Source: Gammaproteobacteria bacterium
GTDB lineage: Bacteria; Pseudomonadota; Gammaproteobacteria; Pseudomonadales; UBA6940
Assembly: GCA_038135915.1 (NCBI GenBank)
Contig: JAYPYM010000019.1
Coordinates: 1 to 27,086, forward strand
Direction of reading: 5' to 3'
Length of the DNA stretch: 27,086 bases
Within the stretch, counting starts at the first letter, position 1. Each line of letters begins with the position of its first letter. The notes below the pieces were generated by a model. The model did no database searches. It saw nothing but the letters and a program-made list of their open reading frames with translations, and was not told where the DNA came from. Below, piece by piece: positions 7,457-24,152 of the stretch. A program made the translations under genes and the position numbers.

Positions 7457-8194
7457 TTGAAAGTATTAGTGAGCTTACATATCTTTATGGGTGCCTTTCT
7501 TGTATCCATTGCCCAAGTTGGACTAACGGGGGAGACCTATTTTCGTAGTGGTCCAGAGCAGACTGTATTTATAGAGTTGTTCACATCTGAAGGTTGCAGT
7601 AGCTGCCCGCCGGCCGAGAGAAAATTGAATGCGCTTAAGGATAACCCAGATCTTTGGAAAACTATTTTTCCAGTAGCCTTTCACGTAGACTATTGGGACT
7701 ATTTAGGGTGGAAGGATCGGTTCGCTAAAACCAGCTATGCTAATCGCCAAAGATATTATGCCCAAGCAAATCATGTTTCTGGCGTATATACGCCGTCATT
7801 TTTGGTAAATGGCAAAAGTGCTGGTGTGAGGCTTTCTCCAATACCTCGTAGAGAGCAAAAGGCTGGGTTTCTTCGAGTCAGAGTTCAGGGCGATCAAGTT
7901 ACGGTTGCATTTACACCAGATGAACAGAAAAAGTTAAATGAAATTGAGTTTCATCTCGCGTTAATTGGCATGGGGCTTGAGACAAATATTACTCGTGGAG
8001 AGAATAGGGGACGATTGTCTAATCATGAATTTGTGGTTTTGGACCATACAAAACAACGTCAACAAAATACCGTTTGGCGTACAAGCCTACCTCGTACCAC
8101 GCAGCCTGCTGATCGCTATGCTTTAGTTGCTTGGGTCACTCAAGCAGGGAGCCTCTTCCCAATACAGACAACTGGTGGGTATTTGCCGAATTAA
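7457..8194 (+). CDS. DUF1223 domain protein (thioredoxin-like, secreted). TTG start, with 'ggag' 6 nt upstream.
   Basis: It carries the signature 'ELFTSEGCSSCPPAE' of DUF1223. It also has an N-terminal signal peptide. Confidence 0.8.
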   Translation: MKVLVSLHIFMGAFLVSIAQVGLTGETYFRSGPEQTVFIELFTSEGCSSCPPAERKLNALKDNPDLWKTIFPVAFHVDYWDYLGWKDRFAKTSYANRQRYYAQANHVSGVYTPSFLVNGKSAGVRLSPIPRREQKAGFLRVRVQGDQVTVAFTPDEQKKLNEIEFHLALIGMGLETNITRGENRGRLSNHEFVVLDHTKQRQQNTVWRTSLPRTTQPADRYALVAWVTQAGSLFPIQTTGGYLPN

Positions 8195-8203
8195 AGGAAT
8201 GGC

Positions 8204-8518
8204 CTATTTGTTATGGTTGGTGGTCTGGTCGGCCTGGATTTCCTCAAATGGAACTAAGAAATAGCCTGAAACACAAAGGCTGAAGGTTAGTAGCAGCAGC
8301 AGGGCGTCAGAAATATCGAAAAATGACCCTGCTAATGTAGGGATGAATACAATCGTTGCGGCCCCTGGCAATATGTAAGTCTCATTTACTTTTAGTTTGG
8401 ATTTGCAATTCGAGCACTCTAAGTCTCGATTGTAATTGCTTGAGAAATTAATAATATTAATAACCCGTTGTTTTAAACTAATTGCTGGTTTTTTGCATAC
8501 GGGGCACTTGTTTACCAT
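8204..8518 (-). CDS. Small zinc-ribbon membrane protein, hypothetical.
   Basis: It has two CxxC pairs ('CPVCKK...CSNCKS') followed by two hydrophobic helices. I chose the start at MVNKCPVC; the ORF track extends it to 8527. Confidence 0.45.
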   Translation of the reverse strand: MVNKCPVCKKPAISLKQRVINIINFSSNYNRDLECSNCKSKLKVNETYILPGAATIVFIPTLAGSFFDISDALLLLLTFSLCVSGYFLVPFEEIQADQTTNHNK

Positions 8519-8812
8519 ACTGATCACCAGGTTTGATTATATTCTTGACTATTATTATTGATATCAAAGTATTTTATCTTTTATTTTCCTCGGTCAGGAT
8601 ATATTAATTTGACCTTTATTTTCAATAGATATTGATAAAATGATACTAAAATACGACATGAATAATCCACATAAGAGGACAGGCCATTGTATTTGCGCTT
8701 AAATTAAGGGACTAATGGGTGGAATTCTTGAAAGAAGTAATACTAATAGGTTTGTAAAGAAGATATCAGTATTAGTCAATCACTAGTGTTAGCAAACAAG
8801 GGAGAAAGTGAA

Positions 8813-9217
8813 ATGCGTGGTGCGGGAGGGAGTCCAGGCGGGGTAGGCCAGTTTCTAATGGGTTTCGTGATGATGTGTATTGGCGGTTACCTATTTTTGA
8901 ACTCCATAGAAGTTACTTCGAATTTTGGCTTGAGCCGTACTTTCTTCAGTTTTGGTGGTATTAATTTGACCGGTGGCATGGTGCTTTTTCCATTTATTTT
9001 TGGTATTGGCATTGTTTTTTATAATGCTAAAAACCCTATTGGCTGGTTGCTGGTGATAGGTAGTTTGTCTGCATTTGCTTTTGGTATCATTAGTAGCATT
9101 GATTTTGTTTTTCGGCGTACTTCTGCGTTTGAGTTGATAACGATACTGGTCTTGGCGGTGGGTGGTCTTGGCATGTTTTTAAATTCATTAAAAAATTTTG
9201 AAGACAAGGAAACCTGA
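8813..9217 (+). CDS. Small polytopic membrane protein, hypothetical.
   Basis: ATG at 8813 is preceded by 'agggagaaagtgaa'. It has about four hydrophobic helices and a Gly-rich N-terminus. The ORF track starts it at 8786. Confidence 0.5.
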   Translation: MRGAGGSPGGVGQFLMGFVMMCIGGYLFLNSIEVTSNFGLSRTFFSFGGINLTGGMVLFPFIFGIGIVFYNAKNPIGWLLVIGSLSAFAFGIISSIDFVFRRTSAFELITILVLAVGGLGMFLNSLKNFEDKET

Positions 9218-9239
9218 GGCTCATCTTGTCCGTATTAGA

Positions 9240-12200
9240 CTAGTCTTTTAATTGATCGAGTACAGATTGAATTTTATCATGTGTTCTGAGGTCAATATCT
9301 AACTTTTTCTCCATGCTGCGAACCAATGGGAAGATTGAGTGTTCCATCGTATCGGCTAAGGCCTTCAGAATTCTATCGATACCTGGCACTGGCTGGTTAA
9401 TCACTTCTATATTATTCTGGGTGGATGCCAGGTGTTTGAATAGGTTTTCGATTGATTTGATCAAAGACTCTATTTCTAACTTCGTCTGGCTATTGTGTTC
9501 GCTGGATTGTTTGATGGCATCGGTAATGTTCGTCAACTCTGGTGCTAGGTGTTCATTCACCACCTTGTTAGTGACAAAGAGAATTTCTTTCAATAAACGT
9601 TTTCGGTCAACACTTTTCGATGCCATTGCTTGTGTTTGTTGATGTTCTACTTGGTCCCCTATGGCATTTATAGATTTAACCATATCATGCATTTGCATAA
9701 TGATTTTCTCGCCAATTTCACCGTCACCACCAATGGATTGGTTTCGCTTGAATTCTTCTTTAATGTAAGTCCATCTATGTTGGTCTTCTTCGGATAGCAT
9801 TCCCCTAATCTCTGCGAGTTTGAGCAGGTTTGCTTGTGCGCCTGTGGTTAATAGTTGTGCTTCACCGCGATAGTGGTCATCGATCATAAGCGCTAGTTCA
9901 TCTTCATTCATGACCGCAGAAATCTTTTCAGCCATTTTATTCATATTTCGGTAGCTACCCTGCAATTTGAAAGGTGGCTCTGTTCGGTATTGGTCATCTT
10001 GTGCGGCTGAAGCAATATAAGCTTGATTGACTTTTAATACGATGTCTTGAACCTTGAATAGTCTTTGTAATACTTCAGTAATCTCATTGATCTCTGCTGC
10101 TGAGTAAGGGTGAGAGAGTTCTGAAGCGGATATTTTTTCCCCTTTTGCTATTCGTACCAGTAGGTAAACGTCATCTAGGCGGCGAGTGGCGAGCGGTGCT
10201 AGTATTGCATTTGATGTTAAGCAGTTTTCAATGTAACTGAGTGCGAATACCTCATCCATGCCACCCAATATATCGCCTAGATTATAAATGTCGGCTCTGT
10301 TTGCGAGCATGTCGGGTATTTGGAAGGTCTCGCCGGATTCTGTATAAGGGTTTCCAGCCATGACAACACAGAACTTTTTACCCCTAAGGTCATATGTTTT
10401 TGTTTCGCCTTGCCAAACGCCTTCGATCTTTCGAGTACCGTCACAGAGTGATATAAACTTCTGCAAAAATTCTGGGTCGGTGTGTTGGATATCGTCGAGA
10501 TATAACATCACATTATTACCCATTTCTAGCGCCAAATTCAGTTTTTCTAGTTCTTGCTTGGCTGTTGAGTTCGGTGCTTGAGCTGAATCTAATGAGGTAA
10601 CTTGGTGACCTAAAGATGGGCAGTTAATCTTCATGAAGATCAGACCAAGCCTATTTGCAACATATTCCATCAGTGTTGTTTTACCATAGCCAGGTGGGGA
10701 TATCATCATTAACAGTCCCATCAAGTCTGTGCGCCGGTTTTCACCAATGGTGCCCATTTGTTTAGCCAGGTTATCACCAATAATAGGGAGGTAAACCTCA
10801 TTGATCAGTCGATTTCGAACGAATGAGCTTAATGGTTGTGCCTTGAAGCTTTCGAGTTTTAAGCTCTTCTTTGAGGCAGCTGATATGTCCGCTTTAATTT
10901 CCTGAAATGATCGGTATGCTGGTAGGTCCACTAAAGTATGGGTTGACATTCTGGAAAGAAAATCGTCGATGGTTCCCTGTATCTCGCCACTCTTAATACG
11001 ATTATGATCCCCTAATAAACCGGTACACACAAGTTTGAGCGTTGCTTGGGTTGGGCGATAGCTAAGTTTACCTTCTAGGCCTAGGTAGGCTGCAGCTTCT
11101 GGGATAAAATCTGCCCACTCAGTGAGAGAAGCCTTTTCTAGTACTGCAACCAACCAAGCTGAAATAAAGTCTATCTTTACTTTTGTCGGTAATATTTCCT
11201 CGTTGATGGTTTTTTCGAATGCTTTCCACGCTGCATCTCCAAGGCGCCGTTTTAATTCTGCTTTCATTTTCTGTGCAGGCTCACTTAGGATAAACGCAAA
11301 TTGATCTCTGATGAGCTCTTGAAAGAGATAACTTGCGGCAGAAGCAATATCGCTATCGCTACACGTTAACGCTTTGGTGTCACAAAAGTCATTAATTGCA
11401 ATTTTTATTTCAGCTTCTAGGTCTAGCTGGGCTTTGTTGTTATCGAGCTCATGAATCAAATGATTGGAAGATTTCGCTCTAAGTTGCCAGGTGGTGTAAA
11501 GTGCGGATGGTCCTTTCACCCCTGATGCGCCTTGGTGATTCATATGGTGCCAAAACCATTGCGCTAAACTCCGGCTGGTTGGTGTGTAGATCAGGCAGTC
11601 GCCTTGATCAAAGATGCGAATGAGCTGTTCAAGTATTTTTGCACCGTCATGATCATGAATACCTTTCTGATAGCCCTCTTTGTACCGAGGTACTGCAAAT
11701 TGACTCACAATTTTATTGATTTCGTCTTCTTTCAATAATGCGGTGCGTAGCATGTCTAAGCTTAGGCCATCACGGTGCTCACGCGCAGATTGGAAAATTA
11801 GGTAGGCCAGATACTCACCTCTGTATACGTTAATACTTTCAGATTCTAAGTGCCAATCCCAATATTTGGACAGTGCTGCAAGTTTTTCATCATGGATCGG
11901 TTGGAAGAAGTTTGTCCCTGTGATATGCAGAGACAATGTCTTATCTCTAGTTAATAAAGTCAGGTCTACAGGACTTGTGTTGACACTAAATTTATGGGTT
12001 GGCCCCATTTTTATAACTTGGCCGCCATCCTCGTATATGTCACTTTTATCTCTTAGACTCCTCAATGCTTGGTCTTTTGCAGTTTTAAACTGAGCATCAA
12101 TTTCATCAGAAAGTATCGGGTTATCTAGCTCTCTTAGCTCTTCACTTAGTTGATGTATTTTCATCACCATCGGATCGGCGACAAAATATGCGTTCAACTC

Positions 12201-14609
12201 ATCTGCATCCTGAAATTTGAGTGATCGCCTTTCCACGCTTGAAAGGACGCGTTTAGCAGCATTAAATAGGCTTTGACATCTCCGCTCTCGCTCATCGAGT
12301 AGTTGTTGCTTATGAGATTCGAATGTTTGATAAAGTTGCTCACGTTGGGTTACGATGTCAGCGATGAATTCATCAAAGCTACTGAACTGACTTTCTAAGG
12401 TTTCGATCTGTAATAGCAATCTAGACAGCTGCTCGTCACAGGCCTCAGGTGTATCTGCCATATTCAGTGCCTGAATGATACTTTGAGAAAACAGCTTAAA
12501 TTGAGCGCTAAAAGACTCAGTGGCTTCGGAGGCGCCTAAGCTTTTATTCTTCTTGTCGGCTCGCGCCTTGCATTGGTTTAGCTTGCCGTAGATCTCAGAT
12601 ATCATATCAATGATCTGGGTGCGGACTCGGGCATCACTCACTTCTAAGGTAGCAACCAATTCAGAAATTAGATCTAGCTGGGTTACTGTTTCTTGAATCG
12701 CCGTTTGAATGGGCTCAAGATCAACAATTGCTGTTGTTTTGTCTATTTGCTCAGAGAAATGGTGATATTTATCATGGTAAGGCGCAAGGGATTCTGGTTT
12801 TTGAAGGAAAACCAGTGTTTTTTCGCTCAAGTTGGTATAGGCATCTTCCAACGATTGGTTGAACTCATCAAGCGCATCTAGGTTCATGTAACGATATGAC
12901 TTGAGGGTGATGATATGACCGCGTTGCTGCCTGATTTCGTGTAGGGTGCTAACAAAATCTTCCACCGTTTCAAACTGTATAGAGCGAATGCGTCCAATCA
13001 GCTGGTCTTTTTTAGATTCAGCATCCTTTAGTGCTGAATTAGATTCCAGCTGAATAGATTGAACCTTTTCGTACTCATCGATGATCTGCTCTGCATTCTT
13101 CTGTATGTCTTGTATTTGGGTGGCGATGTTTTTCGTTTCTGGGTCCGATAACCAGTAATGATCGTCAAATAGTTTTTGCGTTGACCTTAGTAATGAATCG
13201 TATAATTTGGAGGAGACGTCTTTCTCCTGTAAGAAGCCACAAATACTGTACAAATCGGATATGCCGCGGACTAAGGCAGAGTTACCGATTTTGCCATAAA
13301 AGCTATCGTTTACCGGGGTTTTTTCAGCCTGTTCATCGCTGATGTAAGGGGTCTTCCAAAATTGTAATGGGTGATTACGAGTGGGCTCTTTTTCAGCGGA
13401 GAAGATCGCCAACTTGCCAGTGTCGAATAAAGCGTAGCCGTGGCCGATGATAGGGTTGACAATCTGTTTGTTAATGAGATTGTAAGAGTAGAGCGCTTTG
13501 GTGCCCTCAATTGGTTCATAGAATATGTATAGAACATCTTCACCATTAGGGGAGCGGATGGTTTTCTTGTATTTTAAACCATTAATATCTTGGTCGAATA
13601 TCTTATGTTCTCCCGTTTCAAGATAGATGCCGCCTGGGAAAATAATACCATGATCTTCAGGTAGTCGAACACAAGAGCTACCTATGTGGTCAATTCTGAT
13701 TACCTGCTCAACTAAGGGGTTGAACACAAAATAGCGAAATTCTTTCTCTTGATAAGGTCTAATTTTGAGTAGAATGAGGTTGCCCACTTCAGCGTAAAGA
13801 TATTCGGCATCATCTAGTGTTTGGTTTTCGTCGACAACCTTCTCGTTGTATATGCCTAAGCCATCTGAGGTGTTGTTTTCTATTTTTATGGTGAGGTCGC
13901 CGCCAATGGTTTCTACGAAAACCTTATCAAGAATATTTACGTGTGCGTGCTCGCCGTCAACGAAGTCTTCTCTTGAGGTGTTTTGCCATTCAAAATCAAT
14001 GGCTGGAGGTAGCTCGATATCTCTTTCGCCACGGTTATCAATGTACTCTGGTGTAGTCTCTTTGCCCTCTAATGCCCAACGAAATACCTTTATATCATCC
14101 ACTCGCTCGCCGGTTTGGAAGCTTGCTAATAAAAAGCCTTTATTGATAGTGAGTAACGAAAGTTGTGACTGTGAATAGTATTGGTACAGTTCGTGAAAAT
14201 CTCGAAGAAAATTTGAGTTATGAAGAAATGTATCTGATTTTGAGCAAGGTACTATTTCAAAGCTTGGGTTTTCAGGATCGCCACCTTTCTTGATGTCGTA
14301 GAGTGCGAAAACGTCTTCCACCTGAATATCTTTTCTTAGGCCTACAAATACATTATAGCCAAATAACAACTGGTTTCCGATCTGTAAAATATCTCTTGCA
14401 ATACAGTTGTTTTCTGTGCGAATGCGAGAACGTGCCAACACACTTAGATCTGATTGTCCAAACGCCTTAATTCTAGCGGCATTTAAACCTGCTACTTCTT
14501 GATGGAGGCTGCTTTGTAGCGCGTCCAATCGTTTCCGAATAACATCGTAGGCACCACCTTCGGCGACCGCTTGGTCGACCGATGATTGTTCTTGTTCGTT
14601 ATTACTCAT
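9240..14609 (-). CDS. Giant 1789-aa protein with a single MoxR/AAA_5-like AAA+ ATPase module (about aa 1290-1460). It is otherwise uncharacterised: a beta-rich N-terminal region, then extensive coiled coils.
   Basis: Walker A 'ISPPGYGKTTL' maps to nt about 10677-10710. Walker B-like 'VMLYLDDIQH' maps to about 10491-10511. The MoxR-type sensor segment 'VVMAGNPYTESGETFQIPDMLANRADIYNLGD' matches the MoxR '[22 protein letters not shown]' pattern. The ATG lies 2 nt after the flotillin stop (14609 versus 14612). Confidence 0.88.
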   Translation of the reverse strand: MSNNEQEQSSVDQAVAEGGAYDVIRKRLDALQSSLHQEVAGLNAARIKAFGQSDLSVLARSRIRTENNCIARDILQIGNQLLFGYNVFVGLRKDIQVEDVFALYDIKKGGDPENPSFEIVPCSKSDTFLHNSNFLRDFHELYQYYSQSQLSLLTINKGFLLASFQTGERVDDIKVFRWALEGKETTPEYIDNRGERDIELPPAIDFEWQNTSREDFVDGEHAHVNILDKVFVETIGGDLTIKIENNTSDGLGIYNEKVVDENQTLDDAEYLYAEVGNLILLKIRPYQEKEFRYFVFNPLVEQVIRIDHIGSSCVRLPEDHGIIFPGGIYLETGEHKIFDQDINGLKYKKTIRSPNGEDVLYIFYEPIEGTKALYSYNLINKQIVNPIIGHGYALFDTGKLAIFSAEKEPTRNHPLQFWKTPYISDEQAEKTPVNDSFYGKIGNSALVRGISDLYSICGFLQEKDVSSKLYDSLLRSTQKLFDDHYWLSDPETKNIATQIQDIQKNAEQIIDEYEKVQSIQLESNSALKDAESKKDQLIGRIRSIQFETVEDFVSTLHEIRQQRGHIITLKSYRYMNLDALDEFNQSLEDAYTNLSEKTLVFLQKPESLAPYHDKYHHFSEQIDKTTAIVDLEPIQTAIQETVTQLDLISELVATLEVSDARVRTQIIDMISEIYGKLNQCKARADKKNKSLGASEATESFSAQFKLFSQSIIQALNMADTPEACDEQLSRLLLQIETLESQFSSFDEFIADIVTQREQLYQTFESHKQQLLDERERRCQSLFNAAKRVLSSVERRSLKFQDADELNAYFVADPMVMKIHQLSEELRELDNPILSDEIDAQFKTAKDQALRSLRDKSDIYEDGGQVIKMGPTHKFSVNTSPVDLTLLTRDKTLSLHITGTNFFQPIHDEKLAALSKYWDWHLESESINVYRGEYLAYLIFQSAREHRDGLSLDMLRTALLKEDEINKIVSQFAVPRYKEGYQKGIHDHDGAKILEQLIRIFDQGDCLIYTPTSRSLAQWFWHHMNHQGASGVKGPSALYTTWQLRAKSSNHLIHELDNNKAQLDLEAEIKIAINDFCDTKALTCSDSDIASAASYLFQELIRDQFAFILSEPAQKMKAELKRRLGDAAWKAFEKTINEEILPTKVKIDFISAWLVAVLEKASLTEWADFIPEAAAYLGLEGKLSYRPTQATLKLVCTGLLGDHNRIKSGEIQGTIDDFLSRMSTHTLVDLPAYRSFQEIKADISAASKKSLKLESFKAQPLSSFVRNRLINEVYLPIIGDNLAKQMGTIGENRRTDLMGLLMMISPPGYGKTTLMEYVANRLGLIFMKINCPSLGHQVTSLDSAQAPNSTAKQELEKLNLALEMGNNVMLYLDDIQHTDPEFLQKFISLCDGTRKIEGVWQGETKTYDLRGKKFCVVMAGNPYTESGETFQIPDMLANRADIYNLGDILGGMDEVFALSYIENCLTSNAILAPLATRRLDDVYLLVRIAKGEKISASELSHPYSAAEINEITEVLQRLFKVQDIVLKVNQAYIASAAQDDQYRTEPPFKLQGSYRNMNKMAEKISAVMNEDELALMIDDHYRGEAQLLTTGAQANLLKLAEIRGMLSEEDQHRWTYIKEEFKRNQSIGGDGEIGEKIIMQMHDMVKSINAIGDQVEHQQTQAMASKSVDRKRLLKEILFVTNKVVNEHLAPELTNITDAIKQSSEHNSQTKLEIESLIKSIENLFKHLASTQNNIEVINQPVPGIDRILKALADTMEHSIFPLVRSMEKKLDIDLRTHDKIQSVLDQLKD

Positions 14610-14611
14610 GA

Positions 14612-16591
14612 CTATGCTGCTGTATTTTTGCTGGTCAAGTGTTTCATCAGGGTGGAGACAGTATTGCTCTTGTCTGCTAGTCCATCAATTGCTTTGCCGA
14701 TAGATAGGGACTTAGCAAAGTTATTGAAGAAGTGTTCTTCACCGCCAACTATATCGATGTGGGCTTTTTCTAATGCTTGAGCTAGTACTTCTGCGTTTTC
14801 TTTTGCAATCTCTTTACCTGCATCAATAGATGCTAGCGCTTCTTTAAGCGCCGTTTCCAGTGTCATTCTGAATTCTTCATGATCCCTGGCATCTTTCGAC
14901 ATTGCATCCATAGCGGTAAATTTATCTGTTAGGCCGTCAGCCTCTGCTTTGAATTGCTCGCGGGTCACGTTTGCATTCACCATGCCCATTTCTTTTGCAG
15001 CGTTGGCTTCGGAATTGCCTTTGGCTTGTATAACGTTTGCTTCTGCCATGCCCATTTCTCGCGCAGCATTGGCTTCAGAGTCGCCTTTTGCTTTTATCAC
15101 GTTAGCATCAGCTAAGCCTTCCTTCTCAAATGCATCAGCTTTAGCTTCCATGACTTTAGCCTCAGCCAGCCCTTCTTTCTCAAAGGCTTCGGCTTTAGCT
15201 TCCATCACTCTGGCTTCTGCAATGCCTTTCGCTGCCTGCTCAGCTTGAACCCCCTCTGCTAATTTTTTCTTAGCATCGGCTTCTTTAGCTGAAGCTTCTA
15301 ATTCTGCATTTGCCAGGGTAACAACCTCAAGTGCTTTATGTTTTGCAGCGAGTTCTTCGGCTTCTGCGGCTTTAATATGTTTAACTTTCTCTTCTTCAGC
15401 AGAGGCTTCCGCAGCTAATACTCTAACTTGCTTAGCACGATCTGCTTCTGAGACTTCTCTAACCTCTTTGATATGCTCTTCTTCGATAGCGACAGTCTTG
15501 TCTACTGCTACGCGCTCGCGAATCACATTGGCTATTTCTTTCTTTTCAATTTCAACAGCTTTTTCTGCTTCAATTGTTTTGAGTTCGACTTCTCTTTCTC
15601 GACTGACTTTTTCTAGGTCTCTGGCTTTAATCACACGCTCTTCTTCGATCGCAACGGCACGCATTCGATTTTGTTCAGCGACCTCAATTTCTCTTTGTTG
15701 ATTTTCTTTCTGAACCGATAATTCCTGATTGACTTGTATGGTTTTAGATTCTGCTTTTTTGCGCTCTTCTTCTTGAATACGAAGTGTTTCAGCTTCCTCT
15801 CTTGCTTTGATAGATGCAATTTCTCTGGCTTGTTTTTCCTCTGCCTCTGCCTGTTGACGTTCTAATTCGAGCATAGCCTCTTTAGTTGCAACATTTTTTT
15901 TCTTAATAGCAAGTTCTTCGTCACGTTCGAAAATATTGGTTCGTACGTTCTGTTGAGCTGTTAGTTCCGTAATTTTCTTGATTCCTTCAGCATCTAGTAT
16001 GTTATTTGGGTCAAGTGCTTTTTTCGGTGTTTGTTCTAAGTAGTCAATTGCTACATCCTCTAGAACATAACCATTTAAGTCTTCGCCAATTACTTCGATA
16101 ATTTGATCTCTAAATTCCTGTCGGTTCTCGAAAAGATTCACAAAATCTATTTTTTTACCAACTGTTTTAAGGGCCTCTGAAAATTTGGCTTGAAACAGCT
16201 CATAAACTGCAGCTTTGTCAGACGCACGATCCACCCCGATGGATTTAGCAACTTTAAGTACGTCTTCTTGCGTTTCATTCACCCTCAGGTAAAAAGCAAC
16301 TGTAATGTCAGCTCTAAGATTATCATGGCATATGAGGCCGTCTTGACCTCGACGATCAACTTCGAGTGTAATGAGTGATATTTTCATTAGCTCTTTTTTA
16401 TATATAATGGGCCAAACCAGTGCGCCTGTGAATTTTACCTTAGGCTTTGGAGATAAGTCGTTAACGATCAGTGCGGTGCCTTGTTCCACTTTAATGTAAA
16501 AGGCTTTAACCGCAGCTGCGATGCCTATAATGGTGACGAATACAATCAGTACGCCAATGATGAGAGGGAATATAACAGATGCGTCAGCCAT
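14612..16591 (-). CDS. yqiK: Flotillin / SPFH (band 7) family protein, YqiK-like, with a C-terminal repeat-rich coiled coil.
   Basis: It has an N-terminal TM helix ('FPLIIGVLIVFVTIIGIAAAV'), then an SPFH domain. A long Glu/Ala/Lys coiled coil follows with tandem 'EAKVMEAKA(E/D)AFEKEGLA' and 'EANVI(Q/K)AKG(N/D)SEANAA(K/R)EMGM' repeats. Confidence 0.9.
   Translation of the reverse strand: MADASVIFPLIIGVLIVFVTIIGIAAAVKAFYIKVEQGTALIVNDLSPKPKVKFTGALVWPIIYKKELMKISLITLEVDRRGQDGLICHDNLRADITVAFYLRVNETQEDVLKVAKSIGVDRASDKAAVYELFQAKFSEALKTVGKKIDFVNLFENRQEFRDQIIEVIGEDLNGYVLEDVAIDYLEQTPKKALDPNNILDAEGIKKITELTAQQNVRTNIFERDEELAIKKKNVATKEAMLELERQQAEAEEKQAREIASIKAREEAETLRIQEEERKKAESKTIQVNQELSVQKENQQREIEVAEQNRMRAVAIEEERVIKARDLEKVSREREVELKTIEAEKAVEIEKKEIANVIRERVAVDKTVAIEEEHIKEVREVSEADRAKQVRVLAAEASAEEEKVKHIKAAEAEELAAKHKALEVVTLANAELEASAKEADAKKKLAEGVQAEQAAKGIAEARVMEAKAEAFEKEGLAEAKVMEAKADAFEKEGLADANVIKAKGDSEANAAREMGMAEANVIQAKGNSEANAAKEMGMVNANVTREQFKAEADGLTDKFTAMDAMSKDARDHEEFRMTLETALKEALASIDAGKEIAKENAEVLAQALEKAHIDIVGGEEHFFNNFAKSLSIGKAIDGLADKSNTVSTLMKHLTSKNTAA
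14955..15240. repeat. Coding tandem repeats (about 66-bp and about 54-bp units, two copies each) inside the flotillin 3' half.
   Basis: Two 66-bp units lie at about 14962-15027 and 15028-15093. Two 54-bp units follow at about 15110-15225. The antisense ORF 14949-15248 is an artefact of these repeats. Confidence 0.7.
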
Positions 16592-16622
16592 GACAGCTAT
16601 CTCCTAGTAGATGAGTTGTTGG

Positions 16623-17312
16623 TTATAACTTTGATTTCATTTCTTCAAAGACAGACTTTGGTAATACCTTGTAAATATTTTCCGATTCAATATACTCAAA
16701 CAGCACTACTTTATCGCCTCTGGAAAGCCCGTGATCTTCATCTGTACGAGCTTTTAGAATTAGCCCAGCGCCACCGTCTTCTACGCTTACTTCACCAAAC
16801 TTTGTATTAAGCGTTGAAGTACGGACGATTGCATCTCGACCAATAAAGTTCTCAGTGCTGTGCTCTTTGGTGATTTCTTTAAAGAAAGGTTTTAATGGTT
16901 TAATGCATGCAGCAGTAATGAGCGCACTGAGATAGCTTGCGAATAAAAATATCACTAATTTCCAAGCAAAACTTATGATGCCGGCATCTGGCATATGGGG
17001 CGCCGTAAAATAAATGCTGTAGTAAGAAATGAGCCAGCCGAAGAATGCGATGATAGACAAAGATACTGTAAATGGAACCCCATCTAGCCTTAGCTTCATG
17101 AGTAAACCACCAAGATTTGTGAGCCCATCTGTGTGTAACGAATCTCCTTGTGCCGCAGCGCTAACATCTATGATATCAATGTCCACTACGCCTAGAATAG
17201 CCGCTAGCCAGAATAGCACAGACAACAGTAGCAAAAAACTAAATACAACAGTCGGGAATGAGGAGATTGTTTGATAAAATGGGTCAAAACTTTCATGTAA
17301 AAAAATTAGCAT
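16623..17312 (-). CDS. yqiJ: YqiJ-like inner-membrane protein with an NfeD-type C-terminal OB-fold domain (flotillin partner).
   Basis: It has multiple hydrophobic helices. They are followed by 'NFIGRDAIVRTSTLNTKFGEVSVEDGGAGLILKARTDEDHGLSRGDKVVLFEYIESENIYKV', which is an NfeD-like beta-barrel. It sits immediately upstream of the flotillin gene, 31 bp away. Confidence 0.78.
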   Translation of the reverse strand: MLIFLHESFDPFYQTISSFPTVVFSFLLLLSVLFWLAAILGVVDIDIIDVSAAAQGDSLHTDGLTNLGGLLMKLRLDGVPFTVSLSIIAFFGWLISYYSIYFTAPHMPDAGIISFAWKLVIFLFASYLSALITAACIKPLKPFFKEITKEHSTENFIGRDAIVRTSTLNTKFGEVSVEDGGAGLILKARTDEDHGLSRGDKVVLFEYIESENIYKVLPKSVFEEMKSKL

Positions 17313-17522
17313 CGTTATATTAGCTCTTTGAAGCTCCCCGTCTATTGGCCCTTGATAATTATTGTAGATGAAAAATCTCTACAAAAGCTCAGTGCTTGAT
17401 TGGAAATTTAAGACCTGGATACTAGGCGTATTAGCTCGAATATATATTTTTGAAACGTACCAGTCAAATACAGATGAGTACGCTTTTATTTTTGTACATT
17501 TTTAATTCAGGTATTTATTTAT
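17313..17522. promoter_or_regulatory. AT-rich intergenic region; likely promoter of the yqiJ-flotillin-giant ATPase operon and end of the pilin operon.
   Basis: A 210-bp AT-rich spacer. It is the only sizeable gap between two long runs of same-strand genes. Confidence 0.3.
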
Positions 17523-18215
17523 TTAGATTCTCATACAGACCGTGTAGTAACGATTTTCCACGTAAGTTGTGGTGGTGGTGCCGGTAGCTGGAGCTTGGAT
17601 AGTACCTCGTACATTAGGGTTACTACGGGTTGCTCTTAGATTTCCAGTTTCACCATTACCGTTGTCTACCAGTATATCTAGACTGCTAGCAGCACTAGAA
17701 GGTAAACCGCTCATGCATACTTTTACGCCGGTTAAGCCATTGTTGATGCTTGCAGTTGTAACACCGACTAGCCCGCCAAATGGGTTTTTTAGTAAGGCTG
17801 CTTGACCAGCCACTGATGGATCGCCTTTGATAAATTCACCTGCTTTTAAGTGTTGCCAATAATTATCGCTCTCGCTACTTCCAGGTGTTCCTGGGTTAAA
17901 GGTTTGCAGGTTGTTTATGTTAATGACTCCATTTCTATTGCCCGCTGCAGTGACGTCTGACCATAAAGCACCACGATTTTGTAGCCTAGTTAGGTCGCCA
18001 TCATCTCCCGGTTGGGCGCGATGTTGTGCTACATAGTCTTTGTGCGCCGCTGCTACATTATTAATGATTGCTGCCGCCTTCTTTACCTTTGCTCCTTGAA
18101 TAAGCGATGAACCTTTTAGAACACCTCCGATGAGCAGTCCAATCACCACGAGTACAATTGCCATTTCGATGAGCGATACACCTGACTCTCTCGATTCAAT
18201 TTTCCGATGTTCCAT
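17523..18215 (-). CDS. Type IV pilin (prepilin with N-terminal methylation motif). C-terminal Cys pair; candidate major pilin.
   Basis: Class III signal 'MEHRKIESRESG|VSLIEMAIVLVVIGLLIGG'. It has C-terminal 'VCMSG...TVCMRI' cysteines. Confidence 0.8.
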   Translation of the reverse strand: MEHRKIESRESGVSLIEMAIVLVVIGLLIGGVLKGSSLIQGAKVKKAAAIINNVAAAHKDYVAQHRAQPGDDGDLTRLQNRGALWSDVTAAGNRNGVININNLQTFNPGTPGSSESDNYWQHLKAGEFIKGDPSVAGQAALLKNPFGGLVGVTTASINNGLTGVKVCMSGLPSSAASSLDILVDNGNGETGNLRATRSNPNVRGTIQAPATGTTTTTYVENRYYTVCMRI

Positions 18216-18244
18216 TTTGTTACCCCTGAAGATTTTCTATGGCT

Positions 18245-18991
18245 TTAATTGGCTTGCCCGGACTCAACGAGTGTATATGCGATTTGATTCGAAGAAATCC
18301 AGGTTAATATATCATCGAAAGCCGCTCCAGCGGCCTCGCTTGGTTCTCGGTTTACAAATATAGCATTAAGGTTGTCTATATTCTCCGATTGAAAGGGAGC
18401 TGGCTGTGAGGCATCGGGTCCTAAAGAGAAAATGACTGCAGCAATGTTTGTAGCGACTGTGGTAGCACATGCAGTGTTGTTACAAATCTGTATGTCTGGT
18501 GCTGTCGCTGAGAGTGTCGATATATTAAATGTGTCTATAGCGTATGCAAAAGTGCCCACACTTGTTAGGCTATAACGGATAGGGTTTCCCCAATGATCAG
18601 TTAATATGTTATTCGCATCGACAATACCATTGAGTCCTAAATCTGCATTTGGTATGAATCCATGTTCGCTTCTGCAATTTGTATTAGCACCACCAACTCT
18701 TGATTCAGCACCATTTGAATTTGTTGGTGTGATAGTGGCTGGGCAGGGTAGGTGGCCATTTTGGGCTAGATATCCTAAAATAGCTGCTTCAGCTTCTTGA
18801 ATAAGCGTTTCTGTAGACTGGATATTTTTTCGTGTCTGTTGGGAGCTTAGCGGTCCAAGAATAGAGCTAATTAGAAGCCCTACGATCACCAGCACTACAG
18901 CAATTTCTATCAGTGTAAAGCCACGTGGTGAGCTTTGAATGTGAGAAGAAGTATTAAAGCTCGAGTACTTTGATTTGGTCGTTGAAGGCAT
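18245..18991 (-). CDS. Prepilin-type protein with an unusually long 24-aa leader.
   Basis: '...SSPRG|FTLIEIAVVLVIVGLLIS'. 'gagga' lies 9 nt upstream of the ATG. It overlaps the preceding gene by 38 nt. Confidence 0.72.
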   Translation of the reverse strand: MPSTTKSKYSSFNTSSHIQSSPRGFTLIEIAVVLVIVGLLISSILGPLSSQQTRKNIQSTETLIQEAEAAILGYLAQNGHLPCPATITPTNSNGAESRVGGANTNCRSEHGFIPNADLGLNGIVDANNILTDHWGNPIRYSLTSVGTFAYAIDTFNISTLSATAPDIQICNNTACATTVATNIAAVIFSLGPDASQPAPFQSENIDNLNAIFVNREPSEAAGAAFDDILTWISSNQIAYTLVESGQAN

Positions 18992-20039
18992 CTGATAGAT
19001 TCCTCGTATTTCTAAAAATATAATCTAGATCGTTATCTGTATTGTCATCTTCGTAAAAATTCGGAAGATCCAAAATGGTTCTATCCTGGGCGCCGATTGG
19101 TATGCCAGGAGAAACAATCAGCGCATCAGGAGTTGCTGTTACATCTCCTGAAATAGAAATGCAGTCTAGGTCTCCATCAGCACATACCCGGTAGTGGATT
19201 TGGTCGTTCCAGTGAAGATGCACCCATGAGGAGTTTGTCAGTAGCGGGACTGGTGTAGTGCAGCTAACAGGGTCACTTCCGGATGAAAATGGTACAAATC
19301 CTGAAAGTGTACCTGCATTCGATGTTCCGTCTGCGGTGATACTTGCGGAAGGAAAATTACCACAATTATTTCTATAATCAGTCAGTGCGTCTTCAGTAAT
19401 AGCTAATACGCGTTGCTCTATTGTTTGCCAGAACAAACTGGTGTCAATTGCAGATACACGGTCATTAGTGGTATTGCTGGTTTGTGCGGTAAAATCAGTG
19501 TCTCCATCAGCATTCTCTCCTTCTAGATAATTAATGGCATTGATTGAGGTCCAGGTCTGTGTATTGATAGCTTCACCCGGGAGGAATAGAATCGCTGCTG
19601 CGGGATTTCCATCAAGCATTAAGTTGCTGGCTAGTGATGAATTAAGGCTTGTAGTGGGGAAGTCATTTCTAGTGTAATTGAGAGCTACTGAATACCATAC
19701 TGGCGCACCATGAGCATCTGTTTCAACATTCATATTTAGGGTTTGGAATGGGAACAGGCCAATATCATTATCGCAAATGCCGCTAGTACGATTTTCTAGC
19801 CCATCTCCGGTTGTATCAGGGCAGGGTAGTTGGCCTGCTGGCGCTTGTTGCAACGCAAAACCGAGTAAGTTTTTTCTTAACTGTTTTAATAGTTTGGTAT
19901 TCAAGCTAGATTGTTTTAAATCTTGTTTGTTTAGGGAAATCGACGCTATTTTTGCGCTGGTGATGGTAATCATTATCAGTGCTAGCAATGCTAGGACTGC
20001 AATACCTTTCGTAGATTCTGACTTAATGCCCATTCTCAT
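18954..20039 (-). CDS. Minor pilin / pseudopilin-like protein (GspK/PilX-like N-terminus), 361 aa.
   Basis: Hydrophobic N-terminus 'KGIAVLALLALIMITITSA' without the canonical G-F-T-L-I-E motif, as in GspK-type minor pseudopilins. It has a large Cys-containing periplasmic domain. Its start overlaps the upstream stop (ATGA). Confidence 0.55.
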   Translation of the reverse strand: MRMGIKSESTKGIAVLALLALIMITITSAKIASISLNKQDLKQSSLNTKLLKQLRKNLLGFALQQAPAGQLPCPDTTGDGLENRTSGICDNDIGLFPFQTLNMNVETDAHGAPVWYSVALNYTRNDFPTTSLNSSLASNLMLDGNPAAAILFLPGEAINTQTWTSINAINYLEGENADGDTDFTAQTSNTTNDRVSAIDTSLFWQTIEQRVLAITEDALTDYRNNCGNFPSASITADGTSNAGTLSGFVPFSSGSDPVSCTTPVPLLTNSSWVHLHWNDQIHYRVCADGDLDCISISGDVTATPDALIVSPGIPIGAQDRTILDLPNFYEDDNTDNDLDYIFRNTRNLSDAFNDQIKVLEL

Positions 20040-20647
20040 GGTTTTGATATCTTCTCCAATATTAGGCTTTCAAGTATCATGCTTTCCAACTCAGCATCTG
20101 GAATGCCTGTTGTACCATCTACGCTCTTTATATCTTCAGTCTTGTCTGGCTTTTGTGTTTCGGCAATTCTTTTTGAGTGGTCTTTTTGTTGTATTTCGTA
20201 ATGTTCTTTTACTTCATTGCTGTTTAAGAACCAGGTTTGGCCTGTCTTGAAGGTCATTTCTAGGTCATTTGCTTGCACATGTACTTTGCCAGGCTGCTCT
20301 TTCAGGGGGTTAGACTGGAGAAACTCATTTTTTTGGTCGTCACTGTAAATTAAACGGTTGTTGCTCCAAACTGTTGTCTTACCATCGTGTCTAATGATGA
20401 CGCCGGACAATTTAACTGATTCAGTTGTTATGGCGTTTTCTGGTTGTTCTGAAGATACCATCTCAGGTGCGTTAGTTCTAGTAGTTTCGGGTGTAGCGGT
20501 CTCTGTTGGTGTATCTTCAGGAGTCGCGGTGCGTAGGTGATCTAGGAATGCTCTTTGGTCTTGTGTGGTGAATAGCCTGCCAAAGTTTGAGTTAGCGTAA
20601 ACAAGGGTGTTAATCATGAGCATCAAGATGAGTAGGCTAGATCGCAT
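20036..20647 (-). CDS. Periplasmic protein with signal peptide and Thr/Pro/Glu-rich linker (PilP/MshK-like position).
   Basis: I chose the start at MRSSLLILMLMINTLVYANS (ATG 20647); the ORF track extends it to 20767. A 'TPEDTPTETATPETTRT' linker is followed by a beta-rich domain. Confidence 0.5.
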   Translation of the reverse strand: MRSSLLILMLMINTLVYANSNFGRLFTTQDQRAFLDHLRTATPEDTPTETATPETTRTNAPEMVSSEQPENAITTESVKLSGVIIRHDGKTTVWSNNRLIYSDDQKNEFLQSNPLKEQPGKVHVQANDLEMTFKTGQTWFLNSNEVKEHYEIQQKDHSKRIAETQKPDKTEDIKSVDGTTGIPDAELESMILESLILEKISKP

Positions 20648-21302
20648 ATGGGTCCTCAACATTATTTCCTTGTTGTTCGTTAAGTGGTAAGAACGTATAC
20701 CATGATAATCTACACTCTCCATTGAGACCTTGGAATAGGTCTTGCTCCAATTTACTAGGGCTCCCAAGCTCCGATTGAATCACTTTTAAATAACAATATT
20801 CGACACTGAATATGCCGTTCGCTTTGTTTCTTAGTTCCTTGAACAGATTAAAGAAATCACCTTCATGCATAATTTTCATGTCTAACTTCATGGGTGTTGC
20901 TTCAAATTGTGATGAGGGGTGGGTGTAAAAGTCTACCGGTTCGCTGGATATGAGGGTTTTCTCAACTGTATATTCTAGTTTCGGTAATGCTAATTTTTCA
21001 CTGGTTCCTTTCAATGTTTCTAACCATTGTAGTCGTTGGGTGTTACCTACAACACCTTTCTCAACCAATGGCAGGTATCTTTTGATATATTGATCATATG
21101 TTTTTTTCTGCTCAGCTGACTGAAAGTTTAACTGTTCCTGTTCGAAAACAGTATTTTCTGCTGCTTTCAATTGATCATTCATATTTGATGCATAGATTCC
21201 TGACAACACAGTAGTGGAAAGCGAAATTGTCAGCATGATCAGTCCGACACTATGTGCTTTCCAGTTAACCTGATTATTGTCATTGCTCATAATAGGGCTC
21301 AC
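20637..21302 (-). CDS. PilO/GspM-like bitopic inner-membrane pilus assembly protein.
   Basis: Short cytoplasmic N-terminus, one TM ('VGLIMLTISLSTTVLSGIYA'), a coiled coil, then a periplasmic domain. GTG at 21302 or ATG at 21290. Confidence 0.55.
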   Translation of the reverse strand: MSPIMSNDNNQVNWKAHSVGLIMLTISLSTTVLSGIYASNMNDQLKAAENTVFEQEQLNFQSAEQKKTYDQYIKRYLPLVEKGVVGNTQRLQWLETLKGTSEKLALPKLEYTVEKTLISSEPVDFYTHPSSQFEATPMKLDMKIMHEGDFFNLFKELRNKANGIFSVEYCYLKVIQSELGSPSKLEQDLFQGLNGECRLSWYTFLPLNEQQGNNVEDPYAI

Positions 21303-22977
21303 TGGTAACGGGGTATGTGTCCAAACGTTCGGTGGGCTGAAGCATTACCACGATTTCAAATTTTTCTTGGTCATCATCTGAAGAGGTAAGAGGTTCGGTA
21401 CCGGTTTGGCCTAGGTAGTCAGATGTTTCTCTAATATCAACAGGGGTCTGTTTTACCCAGGTTTTCCTGACGATGTCTAGTTTGTCTAACTCTTTAACGA
21501 ACTCCTCCATGATCACCACGGTATGTCGATAAACCTCTTCTGCTTGCTTTAACTTTCCTTGGAGGTGAATGATTGGGGTGCGACTATTCTGTAGATCTTG
21601 GTCTATTTCTGGTGTTGGTGAAAAGTCAGTTGAATCTGCTGGTTTGATAGTGAGATCATTAATCAGTTGCATGAGTTCATCGCCGTGTACTTTCTGCCAT
21701 TGTAGTCCACTAAGCTCGATGTTCTCAAAGTATTTGTTATCCATGACGGTACTTAATACATTAAATATATTATCAGGAGATTGCTCTGATTCTTTGACTA
21801 ATTGCTTCGAAAATTCTACGTCATCGCGCATGGATTGTGCAGTATTCAGTTCATCTTGAATATTGCTGTAATTTTTATCATAGTAAGCTAATAATTGGTT
21901 GAGTTTTTCCTCTGCGATTCTAGTTTTACTATTAAATCCAAGTGCCTGTATGATTAATGTTGCTGTGATGCAAAAGAGTATTAGGGAGCCGTAGTAACAG
22001 GTATAGCTGATTGTTTTATTTATGAGCTGTTTTGAATAATTCCTTAAGTCTGCCTTGGGTGCGTAATGATTTGTCTTCGGACTCAGCTTTGAACAGATAT
22101 AAGAAAATAGTGCATCGCTATCCAGCGGTGTTTGATCTGATCTATTCTTTAGTTTGATTCCAAGGTCCTTTGCGACTTCTTCAATACTAAAAAAAATGTA
22201 TTGGAATGTATTGGTATTCTCATGTTGATCTAAAGCCTGCTCTATAATTTGTTCCGGGACGAAATAAACTAAATCTATTCTGTCTGAATAACTAAGGTAT
22301 CTTTTATTTAATAAAAATTGATGAAGTTGGTTCACGCCTTCCGATGCGTATGCAGAAATATCCATTTTATTGGTTTCGGCTTGGTCAATTCGAATCTGTC
22401 GAGATAATAAGAACATCCCATTTCTGATATAGTTTTCTCTAAGCGTACCGTTTGAGTGCTTTGTAATGAGGATAACATTATCTGATAGATGCCGGTATCT
22501 TTTGATTAGTTGTTCGCTCAACAATGGAATTGACCAGATCCCACAGATAGGTACTTTATGTTTGTGTATTGCTTCGATCCAATTTTCGATATTTTCATTA
22601 CTTGTGATGGAAGAAAATAGAATTTCCTCGTCTTTCCTTCCAGACTTTTCTTGCCCAACTTTGTGATAATGGGTATATTTATTATCGCGGTAATATCGTC
22701 TAATATTCCTTTCTATTAATGCCGATCTATCCTTTCCTTTCAAAGGTGGTATGGTTTCTAGTAGGAAATCTTCTTCTAGTAAGTCTAAAAGAATAAAGCA
22801 GTATTGCGTTGGGCTGATTTCAAGATATTCCTCAAATCGGTCTACATCTGTTTTATCCGTCGTAAAGCTATAACGTAAATCTAAGCGGTGACCGTTCCAA
22901 TGGAAAACGTTCAGTGCAAAGCCAGATATCAGGAATACTCTGTTTATCAAGAGCCCAGACTCCCTATCGTTTCCCAA
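21280..22977 (-). CDS. GspL / PilM-PilN fusion-like (MshI-like) bitopic assembly protein, 565 aa.
   Basis: A cytoplasmic domain of about 315 aa is followed by a single TM ('ISYTCYYGSLILFCITATLIIQALGF'). A periplasmic coiled-coil domain comes after that. Topology only; I did not verify the fold. Confidence 0.55.
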   Translation of the reverse strand: MGNDRESGLLINRVFLISGFALNVFHWNGHRLDLRYSFTTDKTDVDRFEEYLEISPTQYCFILLDLLEEDFLLETIPPLKGKDRSALIERNIRRYYRDNKYTHYHKVGQEKSGRKDEEILFSSITSNENIENWIEAIHKHKVPICGIWSIPLLSEQLIKRYRHLSDNVILITKHSNGTLRENYIRNGMFLLSRQIRIDQAETNKMDISAYASEGVNQLHQFLLNKRYLSYSDRIDLVYFVPEQIIEQALDQHENTNTFQYIFFSIEEVAKDLGIKLKNRSDQTPLDSDALFSYICSKLSPKTNHYAPKADLRNYSKQLINKTISYTCYYGSLILFCITATLIIQALGFNSKTRIAEEKLNQLLAYYDKNYSNIQDELNTAQSMRDDVEFSKQLVKESEQSPDNIFNVLSTVMDNKYFENIELSGLQWQKVHGDELMQLINDLTIKPADSTDFSPTPEIDQDLQNSRTPIIHLQGKLKQAEEVYRHTVVIMEEFVKELDKLDIVRKTWVKQTPVDIRETSDYLGQTGTEPLTSSDDDQEKFEIVVMLQPTERLDTYPVTSEPYYEQ

Positions 22978-24152
22978 ACCGGACCTAGTACGGATACCAT
23001 AATCCAGCCCAGTAACCCACCCATGATCACAGTCAGAATTGGAGTGATTGCAGGCTCTATTTTTTCTACGGCATCTTCAATTTCTCGATTAAAAAAGTAG
23101 GTGACGTTTAACAGTGATTCATCAATGTTACCGGTGCTCTCTCCCACACGGATCATACGGATGACTAATGGTGGGAAAACGTCGACTGCTTGAAAACTGT
23201 CACTAATCCCTTTTCCTTCATTGATATGCTGGCGAACGTTATCTACAGCGAGTTCTAAGATAGGGCTGTCCATCAGCGGTTTGCATATATCCAGGGATCG
23301 TAACACTGTTATTCCAGATGAGTATAATAAAGACATGTAGTTTGCTAGCCGAGCAAGCTTAATCTTGTATAGAATGTTACCAATAATAGGGAAGTGAAGT
23401 TTGAGGTGATCGAATTTGAACCTCATTTTTTCGGACCGTTTGCAAAGTAATTTTATCGTCATAAAGGTAACGATAGGTGTCGAGATAATGACCCACCAGT
23501 AACCAATAAAGAAATCAGAAACAGCGATCAGCGCCTTTGTGTGAAACGGGATTTGTCCTCCCATTTCTTCTACGAAAGGGATAATTTGGGGTACTAAATA
23601 GACCATTAGAAAAGCTGTAACACAGAAAACAACGATCGCAACCACGGTAGGGTAGATTAGCACCTTTTTTGTTGCTGAGATCAGTTCATCTATCCACTTT
23701 AGTGTTTTCCCCATATCCTTAAGAATCTTTGGCAGCTCTCCAGTTTCCTCTCCTACTTTTATGAGGGAGGTGAAAACGGTGTCAAAGTCTTTGTCGAACT
23801 CGCTGAGCGCTTCGGAAAAAGTCTTTCCGCCATTTATTGACTCTGCAATTGCAGCCAATACATCTCTGTAATACCCTTCTGTAGCTGTGTCTCTTAGGTC
23901 ATGGATTGAGTCTAGTAAGGGTACGCCAGCTTTAGTCAGTTGCTCCAGCTGAAAAACAAAATTTATTAATTCATTTCGCTCTAATTTTCTATGTCCAAAT
24001 CGGCTTCCTTTTGCTGTTAGCTCTTCGTAGCGAATGAGGTCCTGTGATTGTGCTGCTAGCCTAGCCTCAAGTTCTAATATGTTGTTAGCATGTAGCTGAC
24101 CTTTAACCAACTTCCCGTTTTGATCTATTGCTTTATATTTGTATTTGCTCAT
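22947..24152 (-). CDS. Type II secretion / type IV pilus platform protein (GspF/PilC/MshG family).
   Basis: 401 aa with two T2SF-type repeats and three TM segments. Its start overlaps the GspE stop (ATGA). Confidence 0.88.
   Translation of the reverse strand: MSKYKYKAIDQNGKLVKGQLHANNILELEARLAAQSQDLIRYEELTAKGSRFGHRKLERNELINFVFQLEQLTKAGVPLLDSIHDLRDTATEGYYRDVLAAIAESINGGKTFSEALSEFDKDFDTVFTSLIKVGEETGELPKILKDMGKTLKWIDELISATKKVLIYPTVVAIVVFCVTAFLMVYLVPQIIPFVEEMGGQIPFHTKALIAVSDFFIGYWWVIISTPIVTFMTIKLLCKRSEKMRFKFDHLKLHFPIIGNILYKIKLARLANYMSLLYSSGITVLRSLDICKPLMDSPILELAVDNVRQHINEGKGISDSFQAVDVFPPLVIRMIRVGESTGNIDESLLNVTYFFNREIEDAVEKIEPAITPILTVIMGGLLGWIMVSVLGPVWETIGSLGS

Follow-up and report, generated by a model that had tools for sequence, protein, structure and literature searches.

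Operons that join a flotillin gene to genes for a YqiJ-like membrane protein and an AAA+ ATPase have already been described in bacteria. Ravi et al. (2024; PMC11237479; preprint 2020) defined an operon class of the composition CesT/Tir-PspA-Band-7/flotillin-AAA+-YqiJ, sometimes extended by a PLD hydrolase, and found abbreviated operons without the PspA dyad to be widely distributed. Here, we analyzed a 27,086-nt stretch of contig JAYPYM010000019.1 from a Gammaproteobacteria bacterium (the whole stretch is called the window below), in which three consecutive minus-strand open reading frames (ORFs), located by ORF calling, encode a YqiJ-like protein, a YqiK-like flotillin and a giant AAA+ protein, hereafter the giant (Table 1). 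The window holds the abbreviated three-gene form of this phage-shock-protein (PSP)-associated flotillin/YqiJ/AAA+ operon, a minimal version of an envelope-stress module that is already known. We put at about 60% the probability that the giant acts in the cytoplasm during envelope stress and uses ATP to remodel the membrane scaffold formed by flotillin (and PspA).

In Pseudomonas aeruginosa, the cluster was first named bac (PA3729-PA3732); a PA3731 mutant showed defects of biofilm formation, swarming and virulence, and osmotic shock induced PA3731. Wallart et al. (2024) enlarged the cluster to bacABCDEF (PA3732-PA3727; PA14_16140-16200), obtained reverse-transcription PCR (RT-PCR) products over every bacA-F junction in strain PA14 and found BacB-F increased 6- to 13-fold in a bacA mutant. 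In addition, PA3728-PA3732 were among 17 genes up-regulated in all phage-infected P. aeruginosa samples. The primers of Wallart et al. map in our P. paraeruginosa locus (L041) to the 3' end of the flotillin gene, the 3' end of the giant gene and the PLD-like gene, which identifies PA14_16190 (BacE, PA3728) as the orthologue of the giant. The view of the initial annotation that such a system had gone unrecognised is thus superseded, the operon and its abbreviated form having been described (Ravi et al., 2024; PMC11237479) and bacD and bacE having been named (Wallart et al., 2024). An eLife paper on the Arc pathway, considered as a source on this cluster, turned out to be unrelated, PA3729 being a background protein in its pull-downs.

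Linkage of the giant to a flotillin subfamily

Scanning a single genome for each species yielded at least 571 relatives, and the best 80 loci among them were retained (labelled L001-L080); they cover Gamma-, Beta- and Zetaproteobacteria as well as Gemmatimonadota, and the full-length identity of their giants, Pseudomonas included, to that of the window was 47-55%. The giant family is moderate in size: clustering at 50% identity left 850 representatives with E <=1e-3, 258 of them at E <=1e-30, a separate search gave at least 4987 matches at 90% clustering, and its members range from 1600 to 1900 aa in length. A flotillin homologue (49-76% identity) was found directly upstream of the giant gene and on the same strand in 76/76 of the kept loci having upstream DNA. 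Ten more distant loci, with 33-50% identity over the first 700 residues of the giant, came from Deinococcus, Hymenobacter, Streptomyces, Nonomuraea, Vibrio, Photobacterium, Halomonas, Proteus and the megaplasmid pQBR103, and flotillin again stood directly upstream of the giant on the same strand in all ten (Deinococcota, Bacteroidota, Actinomycetota, Vibrionaceae and others). Combined, the arrangement was present in 86/86 loci with upstream DNA from at least six phyla, so that a coincidental adjacency of giant and flotillin is excluded; recurring in 76/76 and 10/10 loci, it is far beyond chance.

The linkage was also observed from the side of the flotillin. In the plasmid collection, 319 records matched the flotillin, and the 13 that matched over at least 80% of its length were exactly the 13 records bearing a giant. 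The other 306 records, mostly of the E. coli YqiK type, matched over residues 5-392 alone at no more than 29.5% identity and carried no giant. This reciprocal test indicates that the giant and a distinct flotillin subfamily travel together in both directions, and a functional linkage of the two is strongly supported. The possibility, raised with the initial annotation, that the giant might be common and unlinked to flotillin therefore did not materialise; the family is tied both ways to one flotillin subfamily. Homologues of the YqiJ-like protein were present upstream of the flotillin gene in 71/80 scanned loci and 8/10 of the distant ones, and in the 80-locus scan the YqiJ-like gene preceded the flotillin gene wherever enough sequence exists. 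The recurrence of this linkage across loci bears out the proposal that the three genes work as one unit, conserved as such.

The three-gene arrangement itself proved to be as first proposed, with the ORF coordinates, the strands and the 2-nt junction between flotillin stop and giant start all confirmed. This 2-nt gap is the shortest among 77 loci, the relatives having mostly 60-450 nt as measured naively from longest-ORF starts, and the tight coupling is accordingly not a trait of the family. The gap is also the sole support that the window itself provides for a single flotillin-giant transcript; such a transcript, which had been predicted for the locus, is documented for the orthologues, since the flotillin and giant genes of P. 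aeruginosa PA14 are co-transcribed by RT-PCR. The stop codon of the YqiJ-like gene and the ATG of the flotillin gene are separated by 31 nt, and AGGAG precedes that ATG. A candidate sigma-70-like promoter sits inside the 210-nt gap between an MSHA-type pilin gene and the YqiJ-like gene, and a promoter and terminator scan of the region found such sites to be no commoner than in shuffled sequence. Across that gap of 210 nt, transcription could read through from the MSHA-type genes into the YqiJ-like gene.

Some relatives carried extra genes between flotillin and giant. The insert of L009 (9091-9885) encodes a 79-aa protein, TerB-like by eye, together with a 179-aa zinc-ribbon protein, that of L074 (9446-9985) the 179-aa zinc-ribbon protein alone, and in L001 the pair of 79-aa and zinc-ribbon genes is placed downstream of the giant. 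The L063 insert (8003-9903) consists of two tandem ORFs that look like Rpn-family transposases by eye, and that of L070 (6570-9962) of a 512-aa ORF and two small ORFs resembling a nucleotidyltransferase/HEPN-type pair.

Architecture of the three proteins

The N-terminal part of the giant is taken up by DUF3686, an N-terminal helix followed by a beta-rich, propeller-like domain, and hydropathy analysis detected no hydrophobic segment in the protein. The AlphaFold model of residues 1-1100 (pLDDT, the predicted local distance difference test score, 72.8) showed a helix (20-50), then a beta-rich region (56-419) and long helices (425-856), with a small unit of beta structure and another helical domain behind them. 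The beta-rich N-terminal region and the coiled coils anticipated from the sequence were thus recovered in the model. The proteins that Foldseek matched to the N-terminal model were beta-propellers or propellers joined to helical repeats, and the TM-scores were very low. Matches to IFT-A, nucleoporin, clathrin and dynein folds had TM-scores of 0.04-0.34; they were rejected as homology and retained as the description "propeller followed by helical repeats" alone. An NCBIfam scan of all three proteins gave no match.

The giant family also varied at its C-terminal end. The last ~140 residues (~1650-1789, window 9240-9660) are missing from a shorter branch (~1600-1650 aa; for example Xenorhabdus, Gilliamella, Lysobacter and Glaciecola), whose matches end near residue 1650; members of the long branch have a variable linker followed by a conserved extreme C-terminus.

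Public databases name the giant a "DNA repair ATPase" (NCBI product name), and the Pfam description of DUF3686 reads "ATPase involved in DNA repair". If these names were right, the giant would be a DNA-repair ATPase and its flotillin neighbour incidental, which the linkage described above contradicts. Apart from the names, nothing pointed that way: within the searched literature, no paper was found for DUF3686, PF12458, DUF7902, PF25472 or IPR020958, and Pfam detected DUF3686, DUF7902 and the AAA+ module alone, with no DNA-binding, nuclease or SMC/Rad50-type ABC domain. Moreover, the conserved neighbours are membrane proteins and membrane-stress genes, and searches of Protein Data Bank (PDB) sequences with the giant and with a profile of 28 family members gave matches confined to the P-loop of generic AAA+ proteins (RuvB, Rix7 and p97). 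We therefore regard a role in DNA repair as extremely unlikely and the name as misleading.

The C-terminal part contains one P-loop ATPase module, whose fold is AAA+. Residues ~1298-1423 matched AAA (PF00004) with 29.7 bits, AAA_22 with 27.6 and AAA_5 with 23.0 (cut-off 22). The initial annotation had described one MoxR/dynein-like AAA_5 module; the single AAA+ module holds, and the subtype is not established, as AAA_5 is not the best profile, let alone clearly ahead of the others, and the fold matches are generic. No VWA partner was present among the Pfam-scanned conserved neighbour families (PspA, DUF2170, rhomboid, PLD and zinc-ribbon), the other neighbour genes being unscanned for VWA. The Walker A motif, the Walker B motif (DDIQH, 1372-1376), N1420, R1438 and QGSYR were invariant in the 28 family members (30-51% identity), which shows that the site is under selection. 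The Walker B sequence LYLDDIQH resembles the DnaA-type "DDIQ" box.

The flotillin consists of an N-terminal membrane anchor (residues 1-35), the only hydrophobic anchor seen by hydropathy, an SPFH/Band_7 domain (~34-183), a long Glu/Ala/Lys-rich coiled coil and a C-terminal part that is conserved in a profile drawn from 84 giant-linked flotillins. It therefore combines the transmembrane segment, Band-7/SPFH domain and coiled coil of the flotillin type. Residues 1-231 alone matched Band_7 at E = 7e-8 (33.1 bits against a cut-off of 23.6), whereas the full-length protein had no Pfam match even at E = 10. Probably the Glu/Ala/Lys-rich tail triggers the bias filter of HMMER, and such flotillins can thereby escape routine annotation. 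BLASTP aligned the protein to E. coli YqiK with 31% identity over 458 residues (E = 1e-44), which together with the Band_7 score above cut-off places it in the YqiK type (SPFH2); the giant-linked subfamily is ~100 aa longer than E. coli YqiK. No match was found among PDB sequences.

In the YqiJ-like protein, hydropathy marked three hydrophobic segments (residues 14-54, 77-97 and 110-139) and a soluble C-terminal domain (~150-229), and the C-terminal region was conserved in the family alignment. Membership was judged by the YqiJ (PF21001/PF07290) and NfeD (PF01957) families. The window protein showed no significant Pfam match, even at E = 10; among 26 family members, seven weakly matched YqiJ_N (PF21001; best E = 5e-4) and one weakly matched NfeD (E = 0.25). 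We call it YqiJ-like because the profile of this 26-member alignment matched E. coli YqiJ in hhalign with a probability of 94% and E = 1.4e-7; against the PDB, the family profile had no match.

Table 1. Features of the three-gene locus and of the adjacent MSHA-type genes, with positions in the window.
Feature	Position	Strand	Basis
YqiJ-like (NfeD-type) inner-membrane protein, 229 aa	16623..17312	-	ORF call, hydropathy, hhalign
YqiK-type flotillin, 659 aa	14612..16591	-	Band_7, YqiK BLASTP, hydropathy
Giant (1789 aa), a soluble AAA+ protein orthologous to P. aeruginosa BacE/PA3728	9240..14609	-	ORF call, Pfam, homology
Flotillin stop/giant start junction TAG-tc-ATG	14607..14614	-	2 nt between (...gcaTAGtcATGagt...)
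Candidate sigma-70-like promoter, TTGACT, 17-nt spacer, TATATT	17439..17467	-	Consensus match alone
DUF3686/PF12458, giant residues 35-485	13155..14507	-	Pfam E = 1e-187; N-terminal helix, then beta-rich propeller-like domain
Long helical/coiled-coil region, giant residues 425-856	12042..13337	-	AlphaFold model, pLDDT mostly 80-90
DUF7902, giant residues 607-689	12543-12791	-	Pfam
Single AAA+ ATPase module, giant residues ~1260-1560	9930..10832	-	Pfam, invariant motifs
Walker A SPPGYGKT, giant 1304-1311	10677-10700	-	
Walker B LYLDDIQH, giant 1368-1376, D1372-D1373	10482-10508	-	
Other AAA+ motifs of the giant: sensor-1 N1420; R1438 in PDMLxNR; QGSYR 1550-1554			
TPR protein (MSHA-type set)	25839-26843	-	
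MshE-like ATPase with T2SSE and MshEN domains (MSHA-type set)	24149-25894	-	
T2SSF platform protein (MSHA-type set)	22947-24152	-	
Two N-methyl-motif pilins (MSHA-type set)	18245-18991, 17523-18215	-	

Two further observations concern the genes flanking the operon. An MSHA-type pilus gene set occupies 17523-26843 on the same strand, directly upstream of the YqiJ-like gene, and also holds several ORFs without a Pfam match. On the other side, a 143-aa ORF for a multi-pass membrane protein (8786-9217, plus strand) is convergent with the giant gene and 22 nt from its end; it had no significant Pfam match, and a homologue (59% identity) was found in one of the 80 loci, L057 (Paraglaciecola), where it is likewise located just downstream of the giant.

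A proposed role in envelope stress

The conserved neighbours of the core genes emerged when every ORF from the 80 loci was subjected to unbiased clustering. DUF2170 (YjfI, CesT/Tir-like) and PspA/IM30 genes were located upstream in 51/69 determinable loci, the window being one of the 18/69 abbreviated loci without them; downstream, a rhomboid gene was present in 32/74 loci and a PLD-family gene in 26/74. Going beyond Ravi et al. (2024), flotillin, not PspA, is the invariant partner of the giant, and the linkage is two-way. On pQBR103 of P. fluorescens SBW25 (L087, 1034-14238), genes for YjfI-PspA-rhomboid, DUF2491, DUF350, DUF1190 and glutathionylspermidine synthase are followed by those for the YqiJ-like protein, the SPFH protein and the giant in one same-strand block, so that two PspA contexts of Ravi et al. 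are fused there.

On this basis, the following course of events can be suggested. The YqiJ-like protein and the flotillin would form a membrane-anchored SPFH scaffold at the cytoplasmic face of the inner membrane, and the giant, as their soluble partner, may dock on this scaffold with the propeller-like domain of its N-terminus and with its long helices. The one AAA+ module of the giant, presumably working as an oligomeric ring, would spend ATP on assembling, remodelling or recycling the flotillin scaffold; in the presence of PspA, the giant may also act on the PspA/ESCRT-III-like polymer. Such action would be timed to envelope stress, for example osmotic shock or phage infection. The contact between giant and flotillin, the ring and the substrate of the ATPase are inferred.

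Several points weigh against this proposal. No experiment in the searched literature shows the giant binding flotillin, hydrolysing ATP or forming a ring. The Walker B motif carries DD in place of the usual DE, invariably so in the 28 members, and fast ATP hydrolysis is for that reason not assured. For residues 1150-1789, the predicted structure is of low confidence (pLDDT 64, below 50 around the P-loop), and fold searches of the AAA+ part match generic AAA+ proteins and give no clade. The 2-nt flotillin-giant junction is atypical of the family. Furthermore, the 27-kb window contains no PspA, DUF2170, rhomboid or PLD gene, and any link to PspA in this organism would consequently act in trans. 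Finally, P. aeruginosa deleted for its flotillin PaFlo3 formed just ~20% less biofilm, and no effect was found on growth, motility, oxidative-stress survival or virulence.

The frequency of DUF2170-PspA upstream (51/69 loci) could also mean that the real client of the giant is PspA, an ESCRT-III-like polymer, on which the giant would act as a functional analogue of Vps4 while flotillin serves as a membrane platform alone. Ravi et al. (PMC11237479) take PspA as the starting point of their account of the operon, bacteria seem to have no Vps4-like ATPase according to a 2025 review, and SPFH proteins of Bacillus subtilis recruit PspA to the membrane. PspA is nevertheless dispensable, being absent from 18/69 loci, among them the window, and also from the two Streptomyces loci and the Deinococcus locus inspected, whereas flotillin is present throughout (86/86) and the giant goes with one specific subtype of it; in addition, Pfam detected no MIT-like domain in the giant. 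These findings make PspA an unlikely sole client. As flotillin is invariant and PspA is not, flotillin would be the primary client of the giant. The stricter version, in which the flotillin assembly and not PspA is the obligate client and the propeller-plus-helical N-terminal part is the docking arm, is one that we put forward tentatively and with more doubt than belief.

Induction of PA3728-PA3732 by phage infection might instead point to anti-phage defence, with the flotillin scaffold sensing phage damage to the membrane and the giant acting as effector or switch, for example in abortive infection. Megaplasmids such as pQBR103 carry the cassette, whose patchy distribution suggests horizontal transfer; a PLD-family (HKD) gene lies downstream in some loci, and the genes inserted between flotillin and giant in L070 are toxin-antitoxin-like. 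Phage induction is, however, classical phage-shock (stress) behaviour and implies no immunity. None of the three proteins matched a PADLOC-DB 2.0 family (0 families), no copy was present in 50,697 phage records, and Pfam found no nuclease or toxin domain in the giant. As its conserved neighbours, the cassette has PspA, DUF2170 and rhomboid genes rather than restriction, abortive-infection (Abi) or other defence genes. We accordingly consider a defence function improbable. Of the candidate roles first suggested for the locus, membrane remodelling and envelope-stress surveillance fit the frequent PspA and DUF2170 neighbours and the P. aeruginosa data, and defence, with no PADLOC match and no phage copy, has no direct support.

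Remodelling of the flotillin scaffold by the giant would have wider consequences. Bacterial flotillins and PspA are thought to run without a dedicated motor, and this cassette pairs a flotillin subtype with an AAA+ giant. If flotillin is indeed the obligate client, bacterial flotillins would gain an energy-consuming cycle, such as is known for no SPFH system besides HflK/C-FtsH. The giant would likewise be a candidate for the ATPase driving bacterial membrane repair of the ESCRT-III/PspA type.

Comparison with known systems

The initial annotation drew an analogy to B. subtilis FloT/DynA, in which a flotillin works with a large nucleotide-driven membrane protein. HflK/C-FtsH, an SPFH cage around a membrane AAA+ protease, likewise couples an SPFH scaffold in function to an AAA+ machine; FtsH, however, is membrane-embedded and bears a protease domain, whereas the giant has neither a transmembrane segment nor a protease domain, and there is no sequence relationship between them past the P-loop. 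With Vps4-ESCRT-III of archaea and eukaryotes, a functional analogy is possible, as in most relatives the AAA+ ATPase is encoded beside PspA, a member of the ESCRT-III superfamily. The giant differs in having no MIT domain and in carrying its AAA+ module at the C-terminus of a protein about four times larger, and PspA is absent from the window.

E. coli yqiJ-yqiK shares with the window the two-gene core and its order, YqiK at the identity given above and YqiJ at the profile level; unlike in the window, no giant gene lies downstream of yqiK in E. coli K-12. The relationship to P. aeruginosa bac is closer: bacC (YqiJ-like), bacD (flotillin, PaFlo3) and bacE (PA3728) are orthologous to the window genes and in the same order, and across the Pseudomonas loci the giant is 48-52% identical to that of the window, the flotillin 62-65% and the YqiJ-like protein 35-42%. 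The bac cluster further includes bacA (DUF2170), bacB (PspA) and bacF (PLD-like), all three of which the window lacks. The flotillin-giant gap measures 2 nt in the window and ~150 nt in L041, and upstream of the window operon inspection by eye saw no sigma-54 site, the match there being sigma-70-like.

Compared with the operon class of Ravi et al. (2024), the CesT/Tir (DUF2170)-PspA dyad that heads the full form is absent from the window. Its flotillin, YqiJ-like and AAA+ features agree with the class: a YqiJ/YuaF-type protein with three transmembrane segments is encoded upstream of the flotillin, and a large AAA+ protein with an N-terminal helix/coiled coil and a beta-propeller (DUF3686) directly downstream of it. 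The window thus shows no difference in kind from this class and adds one more, minimal example, in which the three-gene core stands alone without PspA.

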